Below are positions 51,001 to 64,000 of a stretch of DNA of 64,000 bases, in pieces. The DNA is from Paecilomyces variotii (lineage: Eukaryota), in the NCBI GenBank assembly GCA_004022145.1, contig RCNU01000010.1; one strand, written 5' to 3'. A program made the translations under genes and the position numbers. Positions within the stretch are counted from its first letter, which is position 1. The number at the start of each line of letters is the position of its first letter. The notes under the pieces are model-generated. The model searched no databases and was not told the origin of the DNA. It saw only the letters and a program-made list of their open reading frames with translations.

Positions 51001-52565
51001 ATGTTTGCAGACGTACAACCCGGTCCGAAGGACCCTATGTTTGACCTGAAAAAGCTGGCTGACGACGACATTTCCCCGCGAAAGATCGACTTGGGAGTAG
51101 GTGTGTACCGTAACGAGGAGGGGGGCTACCACGAACTTCAAGCAATTAAAAAGGTGTGCATATGATCACCTCGCATTCCTAGCATCTTTTATCTGACATA
51201 TTATATCGATCAGGCCAAGAAGATCCTAAATGAGACCAATCCGGGACACGATGTAAGTTGTCATATTCCAACGGTCCCCCGCTATACTGACTGTGATGGC
51301 TCTGACATAACCACAGTATGAGCTTACTACTGGCAATCCATCCTTTTTGAATGATGCAGCCGTATTGATGTTTGGAGAAAACAGCAAGGCTCTTAAGACT
51401 AAAAAGGTATCTACAGAGTGTCAATGTTTCTAAGACTAAATCTACCGTACTAATAGCCACAGATTGCTTCCGTACAAACCATTTCCGGCACAGGAGCCTG
51501 CCACTTGGCAGCATTGTTTCTTCGACGTTGCAAAGCATTCGCTCAGAGTGTCGTCTACGTGGGTACTCCAGCTTGGGGCAACTACGAACCTCTACTCAGA
51601 CTTGTTGGCTTTGAAGTTCAAAAATACACTTACTATGACCCGCAAACGCATGCGGTGAACTTAAAAAACCTCCTTGACACCGTGGCCAATGCCCCTCAAA
51701 AAAGTATATTCATTCTTCAGGGATGTTGCCACAATCCAACAGGAGCGGACCTCAGTCAGGAGCAGTGGAGGTTGCTTGCAGATGCCATGGAGAAAGCAGA
51801 TGTGTTCCCGCTCTTCGATGTCGCCTACCAGGGCCTCGGTGCGTCTCCCGACAACGACGCCTATGGAATTCAACTATTCGTCGAGAAGGGATTTGAGATG
51901 GTAGTATGCCAATCCTTCTCGAAGAACTTTGGTCTTTATGGTGAACGATGTGGGGTTCTACATGTTGTCACAGACGAGGAGACAATCTGTGCAAATGTCT
52001 ATGACCAGCTCCGTTCCCTGATCAGATGGGAATTCTCATCGTCGCCTGCGTATGGCTCCCGACTGGTGAATATCGTTCTGGGAGATCCGGATCTCAGAGA
52101 AGAATGGTTTGTTGCTCAAAATATGTGTTAGAAGGGGCGTTTTTCAAAGCTAACTTTTAGATAGGCTCAAGGAGTTATCGACTATGAGAAATCGACTCGT
52201 CGATAATCGAAGGAAGCTCTACCATAATCTAGTACATGTGCATAAGGTATGTTCGAAGAACTTAGGGCAGACTTCAGAATCTATACTGACCATTCTCAGA
52301 CACCAGGAAGTTGGGAAGCCCTTCTTACAACCACTGGTCTATTTTGGTATTGTCCATTTTCCTGCTCTGCTAGACTACGGGCCATGCTAACTCTATGCGC
52401 AGCTATCTACCTCTCGCGAAAGAGGAAATCATCAAGTTAAGAGAAAGGTTTCATATCTATCTACCAGACAATGGGCGTGTAAATGTCGCTGGTCTTAACC
52501 CGACGAATTTGGGCTCCGTTGCTTCGGCTATCAATGAGGTTGTGAGAGATGCTACTAAGCTCTGA
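51001..52565 (+). CDS. Aspartate-aminotransferase-family (class I PLP) enzyme; candidate 4-hydroxyglutamate transaminase
   Basis: KIDLGVGVYRNE, QTISGTGA, HNPTGAD, FDVAYQG and SFSKNFGLYGER (PLP Lys). Multi-exon; ends ...RDATKL*. Confidence 0.9.
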
Positions 52566-52794
52566 GGCCGGATCATGAGCCAATGTTAGAGCTGGAAGGT
52601 TCCCTAATGCCTAGAAGAGTAGTTAACCATGGAAAACTATTTTGCTTGACGGCCCGCGCTCGATGTAGACCTACGGCTCCTGGACCCGGAGGTCTGTGAG
52701 TTTGTAGCCTATCTGTCAATTGCTTTTGCAACCTTGAAGAGTATAGTCATTCAATACCGAAGGGTCCATCTCATCCATCCAATGGGATCATATC

Positions 52795-52859
52795 CGGGAT
52801 GTCTGCCGGTCATGGTATATCAGTCACGCGTCCTCGATTGAGTACCGGAACAGTTCCCG
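52795..52859. promoter_or_regulatory. Two CGG-N8-CCG sites upstream of the aldolase
   Basis: cggGATGTCTGccg at 52795-52808 and cggAACAGTTCccg at 52846-52859. Confidence 0.7.
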
Positions 52860-53031
52860 ACACAGCAAAATAGTAAGCGTGTACACCATAGCATAAGGTA
52901 GAACGCGAAAATAATATCATGGATTTAAAAGGCTATGTTTTCTGACAGGTCTCTCAGTCAAATAGGACTACAAGTGAGACTGAGAAAGCGTCTAGACGAA
53001 CCCCCCATCACACTACATTATACAACACAAT

Positions 53032-54032
53032 ATGGCTGTTCCCATTCCTCCTCCTTTCGGAATTTATCCCCCAGTTGTTACATTTTTCAACGAAGACGAG
53101 ACGGTAGACTACAATGCATTTTCGAAGCATCTTGGAAGGCTTCTAGACGGCGGCGTTACGGGCCTCGTTATCCATGGGAGCAACGGAGAAGCCTCCCATC
53201 TTTTGCACGAAGAGCGCGCGGAGATGATTCGGGCGGCACGAAGAATTGCGGATCAGCGAAAGAAGTCAACTGTGATCATTGCAGGGTGCAGTGCACCTAG
53301 TGTTCGTGAAACGTTGCTCTTTATCGAAGAGGCGAAGCAAACTGGGGCGGATTATGCATTGGTTCTTCCGCCTAGTTTTTGGCCTGCTGTCATGACAAAG
53401 CCTGTGATAAGATCTTTTTACATTGATGTAAGGATCTATTTCCCAAATTGTATGTACATTTCGCGCCATCATCACTGACAATATACATCTTATAGGTCGC
53501 TGCAAAGTCACCACTTCCGATTATAATTTACAACTTCCCCGTTGTAAGCGGCGGCCTCGACCTAGATTCCGATCTTATCACCGACATCGCAACTTCATCC
53601 CCAAACATTGTGGGAGTGAAGCTCAGCTGCGGAAATGTAGGAAAAGTAGCAAGACTATCCTCATCTTTCGACCGCGGCAGATTCGCTCCCTTCGGAGGAA
53701 AGGCAGACTTTCTTCTTCCCGGCCTCATTGCAGGATCGCATGGCGCAATCGCGGTTCTTGCGAATCTTACCCCCAAGGCTCTTTCGAAGGTGATCAGTCT
53801 TTATGACGAAGGAAATGTAGCTGAGGCGAAAGAACTTCAAGCAAAACTGTCTCATGCCGATTGGACTTTGAGCACGTTGGGGGTTTCTGGTACGAAGTTG
53901 GCAACGCAGAAGTTTTTTGGGTACGGTGATCCGAAGACGAGGACTCCTTTTGTGACTGTCGGAAAAGACGCTATTGGCGTGAAGGCGCTCGAAAAGTTAC
54001 AGGCGGTCATTGATGTGGAGAATGGGATTTAA
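53032..54032 (+). CDS. DHDPS/NAL-family aldolase; candidate 4-hydroxy-2-oxoglutarate aldolase (HOGA), 1 intron
   Basis: GIYPPVVTFF, GSNGEA, IYNFP (catalytic Tyr) and GVKLSCG (Schiff-base Lys). Confidence 0.85.
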
Positions 54033-62052: not shown

Positions 62053-62270
62053 GCTGCGGTATGGAGATCCTGCTGGACTCTACTCCGATCTTCATGGTGT
62101 TCAAAATACTACTAAATTGTCGTAGATATAAAGGTCGGGATATTTCCGAGAGGCAACATCCATTGTAGGGCTAGTCTGTCAGATAATGACTCTACCCAGT
62201 CTCGTATAGTGGATGCTATAAGCGTTGGTGGTAACTAAGCTTGTCGGTAACATCTCGTGATGGTCTCAAT

Positions 62271-62621
62271 CGGAACGCTGTCCGCTTGTGCCAACAAGCG
62301 ACTACTTACGCTAAGTAACGTCCTAGCACAATGATCAATTCTGTACGTCAAAAGAAACCACCATAGATAGCCTGAAAATATGGTAGATCTAACACAGGCG
62401 GGTCTGTCCAACCTCCACGGTTAGTTTGCGTGGGTATACTCGGATTCCCTACCGGTGATGAATCAAGCTGCGCCAGTGTTGTTCTGCGGGGTCGAGGCGG
62501 CGAGGTTACCGTGATTATGGCGAAGAGTGCAATAGATTCGGAACGAGTAGTTATGGGTACAAGCCAATACGATGCGATAGCAATCTATGAGCCGATAGAT
62601 CAGCCTACGGGTTGAAGTCCG
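62271..62621. promoter_or_regulatory. Three CGG-N8-CCG sites in the divergent orphan-carrier/P5C dehydrogenase promoter
   Basis: Sites at 62271-62284, 62441-62454 and 62608-62621, plus an N7 variant at 62136-62148. Confidence 0.7.
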
Positions 62622-62730
62622 GCAAATCTGGCCACATCATAAGTAGAGCTTCGAATGTTGACTCCCCTTGAATCGTTTAGCAGTCAGTTGTATACCTGTT
62701 CTCGGCGTAACACTGACAACTCATCGAAGT

Positions 62731-64000
62731 ATGGCACTTATGCAGTCCGTGACTTGTTTGCGTTCGAAGTCTCGACGACTGATTCGAGACGGCATAGCTT
62801 CATTGCCTTCAGGATCAATTGTGCCGTTACGACACGTTGCTACAGTGCCGTTCCGGTTACCAGCTCCCAGGAATGAACCCAATGTAAGTCTCGGACTGGC
62901 AGATCAGAAGAAATTCAGCTAACTGTTTTTAGCTCCAATACAAAAAAGGATCCCCTGAACGACTCCGTCTCGAAGAAGCTTTGAAAAAGCTCCGCTCACA
63001 GCTGCCTCTCGAGAGTCAAATCTTCTACAATGGCAAGGCACAGAAGGCACCAAAGTCCGTTGGACAGCCGATGCCCAGCGAGCATGGCACGACGTTTACC
63101 AACTTCCCACTTGCCACCAAGGAACAAATTTCGGTTTCAATTGACTCTGCCCTCAAAGCAAAGAAGGACTGGGAGAACACACCTTTCGTTGACCGAGCGG
63201 CCATATTCCAGAAAGCAGCTGAACTCGTCGCGACTAAATACCGCTATGAACTTATTGCAGCAACAATGCTGGGCCAGGGGAAGAACATCTGGCAAGCAGA
63301 GATCGATGCTGCAGCGGAGTTGGCGGATTTCTTCCGCTTAAATTGCAATTACGCTGCGGAGCTTCTAGGAAGGCAGCCTGATCGTGGGAGCGATGGGATG
63401 TGGAGGTTAGCCAGCTATCCCTAAGTTAACGTGAGGCATCCCGATCGCGCTGACCTTGAATAGCCGTCTAGACTATCGTCCATTGGAGGGATTTGTGTAC
63501 GCCATCTCTCCGTTCAACTTCACTGCCATCGGTGGAAACCTGATTTCAGGCCCAGCTTTGATGGGAAATGTGGTGATTTGGAAGCCGTCTCCATCCAACA
63601 TTTATGCGAGCACTCTGATTTACAAGATCCTTGTCGAAGCCGGTCTGCCACCAGATGTTATCCAGCTAGTGCCTGGCGATGCTGAAGAGATCACTGACAT
63701 TGTTCTTTCCCACCGTGAGTTTGCGGGTTTGAACTTCACTGGCTCATCGCATGTATTCCGGTCCATCTATGGAAAGGTCAGCAAAGGCGTTTCCGACGGC
63801 TTGTACCGTGACTATCCCCGTCTTGTGGGAGAGACCAGCGGCAAGAACTTTCACCTCGTTCATCCATCGGCAGACATTTCAAGTGCTGTTAACCATACCA
63901 TCCGTGGAGCATTCGAGTACCAGGGCCAGAAGTGCTCGGCAACTTCTCGTCTCTACCTTCCAGAATCCCGTGCTCAGGAGTTCCTCTCACAACTCACAGC
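62731..64000 (+). CDS. Delta-1-pyrroline-5-carboxylate dehydrogenase (PrnC/Put2/ALDH4 family), 3' truncated by the window
   Basis: [48 protein letters not shown] and [10 protein letters not shown] (catalytic Cys). Presequence-like N-terminus. Confidence 0.95.

Follow-up and report, generated by a model that had tools for sequence, protein, structure and literature searches.

Which compound is degraded by the enzymes encoded in a compact group of eight genes on contig RCNU01000010.1 of Paecilomyces variotii (GenBank assembly GCA_004022145.1), and is this compound hydroxyproline? The genes lie at positions 51001-64000 of a stretch of 64,000 nucleotides, which is referred to here as the window, and they include genes for a proline dehydrogenase (ProDH), a pyrroline-5-carboxylate (P5C) dehydrogenase (P5CDH), an aspartate aminotransferase (AspAT)-family enzyme and a DHDPS-family aldolase. 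In the mammalian pathway, trans-4-hydroxy-L-proline is degraded to pyruvate and glyoxylate by PRODH2/HYPDH, ALDH4A1, GOT2 and HOGA1, and the animal genes for this degradation are dispersed. The locus shares with the mammalian pathway the same four enzyme families, the active-site residues of HOGA1, an AspAT of the mitochondrial type and a P5CDH of the ALDH4A1/Put2 type. It differs from the mammalian pathway in that the genes are clustered, and in that it also includes a P5C reductase (P5CR), a FAOX-type oxidase, an SLC25 carrier and a further protein of carrier-like predicted fold.

The initial annotation of the window had proposed a system dedicated to hydroxyproline. Our analysis bore out its observation that each of the four enzyme types used by animals is encoded at this one locus, and the aldolase was found to keep five residues of HOGA1. 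However, the view of a dedicated system could not be upheld, as the core of the cluster occurs in other fungi without the aldolase and the AspAT and resembles the prn proline cluster of Aspergillus nidulans, and as the oxidase, the reductase and the unnamed product of gene g7 are left without a role. For these reasons, we lean towards reading the locus as a prn-type imino-acid (proline-family) catabolic cluster with a hydroxyproline lower branch. Three results obtained from sequence comparisons favour 4-hydroxyproline as a substrate, namely the HOGA1-like residues of the aldolase, a cysteine of the ProDH at the position of Tyr540 in PutA, and the occurrence of two aldolase subtypes in such clusters.

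Results and Discussion

Eight contiguous genes at the end of the window

The eight contiguous genes, designated g1 to g8, are separated by intergenic gaps of less than about 700 bases. Reading frames and GT..AG sites served to assemble their models manually, and these were refined with RNA contigs and one annotated homologue. Pfam was run on stop-to-stop open reading frames (ORFs), of which 104 were scanned in the window in all. Within positions 51001-64000 this detected Aminotran_1_2 (E-value 1.2e-47), DHDPS over two exons (1.4e-15 and 1.3e-19), DAO (1.3e-25), Mito_carr (3.3e-43), Pro_dh (2e-50), P5CR_dimer plus F420_oxidored (4.6e-31) and Aldedh over two exons (2e-13 and 1.3e-41). Together with the PDB matches and the gene models, these domains confirm the earlier description of eight contiguous genes with named enzyme families.

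The contigs of run X1, which are mismatch-free in every piece listed, contain 13 GT..AG joints within seven of the eight genes (six in g1, two in g8, and one each in g3, g4, g5, g6 and g7). Because of these splice joints we read X1 as RNA, its recorded library type being a guess. Three other runs (X2-X4), labelled as metatranscriptomic RNA-Seq of food fermentation, yielded unspliced contigs of up to 176 kb that are 95-99% like window positions 50500-64000. As these contigs are unspliced and look like the DNA of a related strain, they were not counted as expression evidence.

The aldolase and the aminotransferase

g2 (53032..54032, plus strand) encodes a HOGA1-like class I aldolase of the DHDPS family, as judged from Pfam, PDB matches and motifs, with 310 amino acids and a predicted intron at 53428-53495. 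Its exon 2 (178 amino acids) is 99% identical to a P. variotii protein. The full-length tests were performed with P. variotii protein P0121 as query, which differs from g2 at few positions. When P0121 was compared with the PDB, entry 3qfe came first (2.6e-69) and human HOGA1 second (2.7e-34), followed by YagE (5.9e-28) and DHDPSs. Among characterised proteins with a solved structure, HOGA1 comes nearest to the aldolase in sequence. In the alignment of P0121 with HOGA1 (PDB 3s5n), Ser77, Asn78, Tyr168, Lys196 and Ser198 are all kept: GSNGE pairs with GSNGE, the Y of IIIYNFP with the Y of VVLYSVP, and K-L-S with K-D-S. According to the HOGA1 study (PMC3188589), Lys196 is the nucleophile that forms the Schiff base, Tyr168 and Ser77 constitute the relay for protons, and Asn78 and Ser198 are unique substrate-binding residues, the counterparts of which in Escherichia coli DHDPS are Thr45 and Ala163. 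The GSNGE motif was found in 49 of the 50 aligned full-length fungal relatives that cover it. Assignments of the aldolase as DapA, NanA, KdgD or HpaI were considered and dropped, since it scores under every bacterial DHDPS-family NCBIfam cut-off.

The best solved match of g2, PDB 3qfe, carries the motifs GTNAE and K-L-T, as do the cluster aldolases of the Pleosporales-like loci described below, whereas g2 has GSNGE and K-L-S, as human HOGA1. This view of GTNAE/K-L-T aldolases in Pleosporales-like loci versus GSNGE/K-L-S in g2 indicates that two subtypes of one family occur in such clusters. The title of the 3qfe entry describes a DHDPS-family protein with an unassigned function; we take this protein to be from Coccidioides immitis, the search having given no organism. 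Close relatives of the aldolase are restricted to P. variotii itself, one protein with 83% identity, and proteins of Scytalidium and Xylogone (70-71%), after which identities drop to 55% or less; this distribution is patchier than that of ProDH. In Talaromyces proteolyticus, Aspergillus granulosus and Penicillium verhagenii, no linkage of aldolase and ProDH was observed, the homologue with 48-49% identity being located on another contig in all three cases. With respect to transcription of g2, the X1 contig at 53402-54027 (depth 47.8) starts 26 bases 5' of the donor site, and the depth over the upstream part of g2 is 2-5. In that sample, the intron may thus have been retained, or a transcript may have started within the gene.

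g1 (51001..52565, plus strand) encodes an AspAT-family aminotransferase of 405 amino acids in seven exons (51001-51153, 51214-51252, 51317-51406, 51463-52106, 52165-52246, 52300-52346 and 52403-52565). All six introns are found in X1, and the exon end at 52106 was set by an X1 joint. The best PDB match is a mitochondrial AspAT (4.6e-56), and the Aminotran_1_2 domain and the PDB AspATs place g1 among the class I dicarboxylate (aspartate-type) aminotransferases. The model contains the sequences SKNFGLY and GRVNVAGL, which we take to be, respectively, the lysine and arginine motifs of aspartate-type aminotransferases. The protein has no presequence; its start corresponds to the mature N-terminus, and its last residues are -TKL. 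An extra GT..AG joint in X1 at 50879-51084 (depth 20 versus 64 for the main form) bypasses the g1 start codon at 51001, and its in-frame use would leave only 'MY' before residue 29 of g1. This joint may represent an alternative 5' exon or a minor mis-splice.

Proline dehydrogenase, P5C dehydrogenase and P5C reductase

g5 (58083..59518, plus strand) encodes a ProDH of 461 amino acids, or of 484 amino acids if started at the upstream ATG at 58014, with an intron at 58640-58689 that is matched by an X1 joint. The assignment is based on Pfam and on a FastTree phylogeny of 89 sequences, in which g5 falls into a clade of 17 rows (clade A) with a local support of 100, sister to a clade of 19 rows (clade B). 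Relatives with 63-75% identity span Aspergillus, Penicillium, Talaromyces, Colletotrichum, Diaporthe, Alternaria and other genera. A cysteine of g5 aligns with Tyr540 of wild-type E. coli PutA, a position occupied by serine in the Y540S mutant entries. Tyr540 of PutA disfavours hydroxyproline. The motif could be located in 16 clade-A sequences, all of which have a cysteine at this position. Aspergillus hancockii and Aspergillus nanangensis have one clade-A and one clade-B ProDH each, and this lends indirect support to the earlier view that g5 is a ProDH paralogue.

ProDHs of other clades also have partners of their own. Clade-B ProDHs are fused with P5CR in a gene model of Aspergillus fumigatus (P0368) and with a Rieske oxygenase in a model of Sphaceloma murrayae (P0390), and the outer-clade ProDH P0455 is located with FAOX P0282 on one 54,131-base contig of Aplosporella prunicola. 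Since other ProDH clades thus adjoin P5CR, a Rieske oxygenase or FAOX, a family of related imino-acid clusters is suggested, comprising several paralogous clusters with different entry substrates.

g8 (62731..64000, plus strand) encodes a P5CDH of the Put2/ALDH4A1 type. The end of the window cuts the gene, so that the first 387 amino acids are available, and both introns (62884-62932 and 63406-63463) correspond to X1 joints. Among solved structures, yeast Put2 ranks first (1.5e-75), ahead of mouse and human ALDH4A1 (about 1e-57), which places g8 in this type, and P5CDH is 70-77% identical across the related loci in the best aligned segment. The N-termini of both ProDH and P5CDH are basic. g6 (59942..60907, plus strand) encodes a P5CR of 304 amino acids with an intron at 59988-60038 that is matched by an X1 joint. 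In addition to its Pfam domains, exon 2 alone scores 198.2 bits against TIGR00112 (NCBIfam proC), which is above the equivalog cut-off of 196.75.

The oxidase and the carrier-like proteins

g3 (54329..55675, minus strand) encodes an FAD-dependent amine oxidase of the FAOX/MSOX family with 427 amino acids and the C-terminal sequence -AKL, a type 1 peroxisomal targeting signal (PTS1). It equals an annotated P. variotii protein save a 63-base in-frame intron (55397-55459), which was placed from the annotated homologue and is matched by an X1 joint. The closest solved structure in the PDB is Amadoriase II (1.5e-55), whose alignment spans the whole of g3 and reaches 192 bits for some 400 residues. 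The FAOX/MSOX family includes fungal fructosyl-amine, L-pipecolate, saccharopine and sarcosine oxidases. However, g3 is no close copy of any solved member and sits in a proline-type catabolic cluster. Its identity to the FAOX of other clusters is 44-46%, and 15 of its 17 closer relatives have a canonical [SA][KR]L end.

g4 (56332..57612, minus strand) encodes a mitochondrial carrier (SLC25) of about 310 amino acids in six predicted exons, with a Mito_carr domain and three PX[DE]XX[KR] motifs at residues 40, 141 and 242, as in the repeats of SLC25 proteins. RNA covers only the last of its five predicted introns (56363-56426); the others, like the 12-base micro-exon at 57398-57409, are predictions. 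g7 (61081..62052, minus strand) encodes a conserved unnamed helical protein of 305 amino acids with an intron at 61871-61924. It has no Pfam match, even at an E-value of 10, and is placed among the Ascomycota orphan clusters (Atlas). A structure modelled from exon 2 aligned with eight homologues from related loci is predicted to be all-helical, with a predicted local distance difference test score (pLDDT) of 66.5. Foldseek returned no match to this model at E-values of 0.001 or less, with ADP/ATP carriers and UCP1 among the first rows, and a comparison with a carrier by hhalign was negative (probability 0.4). In a VIA-align comparison with 48,161 chains, Z-scores of at least 8 were reached only by UCP1 (11.3), a Tetrahymena carrier-like subunit (9.8) and the bovine ADP/ATP carrier (8.5); it should be noted that helical bundles can reach such Z-scores by chance. 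The carrier-like character of the predicted g7 model is therefore regarded as a lead, not as a finding. Of the two carrier-type proteins of the initial annotation, g4 is thus confirmed by its domain and motifs, whereas for g7 the predicted fold is the point of likeness.

Related loci in other fungi

To view the cluster in other fungi, 37 loci were gathered from metagenome contigs with an alignment of the cluster-type FAOX, and the window models were then run against them by tblastn. ProDH and a g7-like gene were each found in 11 of these loci and P5CR in 8, while fewer had P5CDH (6), the aldolase (4) or AspAT (3). L001 and L003 are identical sequences from different records, as are L005 and L007. 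Pfam searches in the gaps of related loci revealed a Fungal_trans regulator and an AA_permease. The most complete layout, P5CR-ProDH-g7-FAOX-regulator-AspAT-permease-aldolase-P5CDH, is present in L001 and L005/L007. L002 has the layout of L001 without AspAT, and the contig of L006 ends inside the permease. L008 contains P5CR-ProDH-g7-FAOX-regulator-P5CDH only, L015 g7-P5CDH-FAOX-regulator, and L011 P5CR-ProDH-FAOX. By best matches, L001-L011 are Pleosporales-like, the ProDH of L008 being 99% identical to that of Alternaria, while L015 is Penicillium-like. As a negative control, FAOX paralogues with 43-45% identity to the query (L017-L022) were found to lack cluster genes in their flanks.

Further linkages were found in named species. 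ProDH and FAOX are linked by their locus tags in A. hancockii (BBP40_003776/003772) and Cosmosporella (Fc.00g000620/000650), and in seven further species the homologues of the two report the same longest contig. Fused gene models combine ProDH and P5CR in Microdochium and Beauveria, and the regulator and ProDH in Aureobasidium; in Scytalidium, such a model joins a carrier to an adjoining g3-type FAOX. Because the grouping recurs in other fungi, it is not due to chance, and the neighbours are indeed co-conserved, as the initial annotation had proposed to check. The annotation had also guessed that a regulator and a permease may lie beyond position 64000. Both are present in related loci, but no Fungal_trans regulator or amino-acid permease, the equivalents of prnA and prnB, was detected by Pfam in positions 51001-64000 or in the upstream 50 kb.

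Two side observations relate to these loci. In L001, a gene with FAD_binding_4 and FAD-oxidase_C domains, of the D-lactate dehydrogenase or glycolate oxidase type, adjoins P5CR (L001:1628-3537), and the substrate of the encoded enzyme could be one of the pathway's products with two or three carbons. Moreover, for the relatives P0122 of the aldolase (83% identity), P0001 of ProDH (86%) and P0246 of FAOX (82%), the longest contig is in each case one of 28,848 bases, and a sister species probably retains the same cluster.

Proposed route and its compartments

The core of the cluster would consist of ProDH and P5CDH in the mitochondrion, a P5CR, an oxidase of the FAOX type in the peroxisome and a membrane protein of carrier-like character. 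On the hydroxyproline branch, hydroxyproline would enter the mitochondrion and be oxidised by g5 to 3-hydroxy-P5C, which g8 would convert to 4-hydroxyglutamate. This product would leave the mitochondrion, for which g4 and/or g7 are candidate transporters, and would be converted by g1 to 4-hydroxy-2-oxoglutarate. Finally, g2 would be expected to cleave 4-hydroxy-2-oxoglutarate to pyruvate and glyoxylate. The same ProDH and P5CDH probably also process proline. For g3 and g6, our guess is that they return another imino acid, or cytosolic or peroxisomal P5C, to proline.

The placement of the last steps is suggested by the C-terminal ends of the proteins. PTS1-type ends were observed on the AspAT of L001 and L005/L007 (-SRL) and on the aldolase of L001 (-SRL) and of L002 and L005 (-ANL), and 15 of 19 named FAOX relatives of the cluster type have a canonical [SA][KR]L end. 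The peroxisomal-type ends on AspAT, aldolase and FAOX of the Pleosporales-like loci would thus assign the steps that yield glyoxylate to peroxisomes. Since malate synthase is a peroxisomal enzyme in fungi, glyoxylate would form where it can be consumed. Human HOGA1, in contrast, is mitochondrial, with targeting residues 1-25 (PMC3188589), whereas g1 and g2 lack presequences and have relatives with peroxisomal-type ends. In the window, a clear peroxisomal signal is carried by g3 only.

In an extended form, the locus would represent a compartmentalised supercluster that is shared by many Pezizomycotina. In this form, mitochondrial ProDH and P5CDH would be combined with a peroxisomal AspAT/HOGA-type branch that releases glyoxylate, g7 would be a divergent proline/hydroxyproline carrier with the SLC25 fold, FAOX and P5CR would form a salvage loop to proline, and the hydroxyproline branch would have been built independently from different aldolase and oxidase paralogues. 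We regard this extended form as tentative and, taken as a whole, rather doubtful.

Evidence against a hydroxyproline branch and alternative explanations

Several observations weigh against a prn-type cluster with a hydroxyproline branch. The animal route leaves g3, g6 and g7 without a role, although FAOX, P5CR and g7 are the most constant partners of ProDH. The aldolase and AspAT are both absent from L008 and L015, AspAT is absent from L002, and L011 has P5CR, ProDH and FAOX only; as the core occurs without aldolase and AspAT, hydroxyproline cannot be its sole substrate. In Scytalidium and Xylogone, the relatives of g2 (70-71%) and g3 (68%) lie on contigs that differ in size and are therefore unlinked. 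The cysteine at the Tyr540 position is not confined to clade A, since 11 of the 16 clade-B sequences and several others have it as well, and it is therefore no marker of a hydroxyproline enzyme. An AspAT on its own could simply serve the conversion of glutamate to 2-oxoglutarate. The ends of g1 (-TKL) and g2 (-NGI) imply that the peroxisomal pattern is weak or absent in this genome. Lastly, the g2 intron at 53428-53495 was not spliced in X1, where the contig at 53402-54027 reads through it.

One alternative is an ordinary proline-utilisation cluster, i.e. a counterpart of prn that also handles P5C derived from arginine or ornithine, and we consider this a possible but not a probable explanation. 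ProDH and P5CDH would then produce glutamate, P5CR would return cytosolic P5C to proline for oxidation in the mitochondrion, AspAT would convert glutamate to 2-oxoglutarate, and the aldolase and oxidase would be passengers or act on unrelated substrates. The prn cluster of A. nidulans consists of five genes, prnA, prnX, prnD, prnB and prnC, as described in PMC5983819, and the related loci overlap with this content. ProDH and P5CDH are clustered in both systems, and the related loci add a Fungal_trans regulator, a permease and an unnamed gene beside ProDH; in that description, however, prn is without P5CR, flavin oxidase, AspAT, aldolase or SLC25 carrier, and gene order and orientation differ. 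A core without aldolase or AspAT in L008 and L015 agrees with proline utilisation, and 70-77% identity of P5CDH fits a housekeeping catabolic enzyme. What this explanation does not account for is the presence of a HOGA1-like aldolase, in two subtypes, together with P5CDH in L001, L002, L005/L007 and the window, nor does it explain the second ProDH clade in two Aspergillus species. The constancy of the trio FAOX, P5CR and ProDH has led us to consider also the catabolism of another imino or N-alkyl amino acid, for which g3 would be the entry enzyme. Its product, a pyrroline carboxylate, would be reduced to proline by g6, and the proline would be further degraded by g5 and g8. Candidate substrates are L-pipecolate, N-methylproline, D-proline, D-hydroxyproline, and an opine or Amadori-type compound. 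The pairing of other ProDH clades with P5CR in A. fumigatus, a Rieske oxygenase in Sphaceloma and FAOX in Aplosporella is in line with this idea, as is the statement that P5C reductases take several ring analogues (PMC12899673). Nevertheless, the sequence of g3 reveals no substrate, its identity to the FAOX of other clusters is just 44-46%, and the aldolase and AspAT are left without a role, so that we judge this explanation to be improbable. It can be compatible with a prn-type cluster with a hydroxyproline branch and need not replace it.

In bacteria, the hydroxyproline route relies on three protein superfamilies that are also encoded at the locus, namely DAO-type flavoenzymes, the DHDPS family and aldehyde dehydrogenases (ALDHs). 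A version of this route without epimerase would involve an oxidase that forms pyrroline-4-hydroxy-2-carboxylate, a DHDPS-family deaminase and an ALDH acting on 2-oxoglutarate semialdehyde, and the peroxisomal-type ends of both the oxidase and the DHDPS-family protein of L001 would suit it. However, the ALDH is clearly of the Put2/ALDH4A1 type, the aldolase keeps the substrate residues of HOGA1, and ProDH, P5CR and AspAT would have no role. In addition, the C-N bond that MSOX/FAOX enzymes oxidise is the one that points away from the carboxylate, and the lack of a Pro_racemase (hydroxyproline 2-epimerase) domain in the 104 scanned window ORFs also counts against it. We therefore consider the bacterial-type route very unlikely. 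Even less credit can be given to a biosynthetic role of the locus, as a secondary-metabolite cluster providing modified proline or pipecolate as a building block. Homologues of P5CR do occur in such clusters, for example APF3 (PMC12899673), but neither the scanned window ORFs nor the related loci yielded a polyketide synthase, non-ribosomal peptide synthetase, terpene synthase or tailoring enzyme, the related loci contain an amino-acid permease, and the gene set reads as catabolic.

Genomic setting of the cluster

Positions 1-51000 of the window contain, according to Pfam, genes for a methyltransferase, a WD40 protein, Rad1, a bromodomain protein, RGS, CSN7, velvet, a Cu-ATPase, bL31, a flavin reductase and PPP4R2, as well as an SMC/Rad50-like ORF. 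Because the upstream 50 kb thus consist of unrelated housekeeping-type genes, the left border of the cluster is sharp, at about 51 kb, and its setting is that of the core genome. On the same ground, an origin of the cluster from a starship or another mobile element was dropped. Two further features of this region are worth mentioning. On the minus strand at 39416-42536 there are two long ORFs (434 and 623 amino acids) with no Pfam match at E-values of 1e-4 or less. At 9349-11069, also on the minus strand, a seven-bladed WD40 ORF is located directly 3' of an ORF with a PigL_N domain, and the two may be one NLR-like or pigment-cluster-type gene.

Novelty and significance

The chemistry of the pathway and the prn cluster are already known. 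For the combination of genes and its conservation, and likewise for the peroxisomal signals and the g7 family, there appears to be no previous description. In line with the initial annotation, neither a fungal hydroxyproline catabolic cluster nor the extended cluster reported here was found in the searched literature, which excludes most subscription journals, and the same literature yielded no genetic account of hydroxyproline degradation in fungi. For A. fumigatus, gene clusters with induction on hydroxyproline medium are compiled in Table S8 of PMC2526178, and orthologues of the present genes may be among them. Collagen and the glycoproteins of plant cell walls are rich in hydroxyproline, and P. 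variotii is genetically tractable. The cluster provides a concrete gene set for dissecting fungal hydroxyproline breakdown. Moreover, it suggests a function for the solved but functionally unnamed protein 3qfe, and it makes g7, a conserved unnamed predicted membrane protein, a candidate mitochondrial imino-acid transporter. More generally, it appears that different paralogues of the same enzyme families have been recruited to similar clusters in different fungi.

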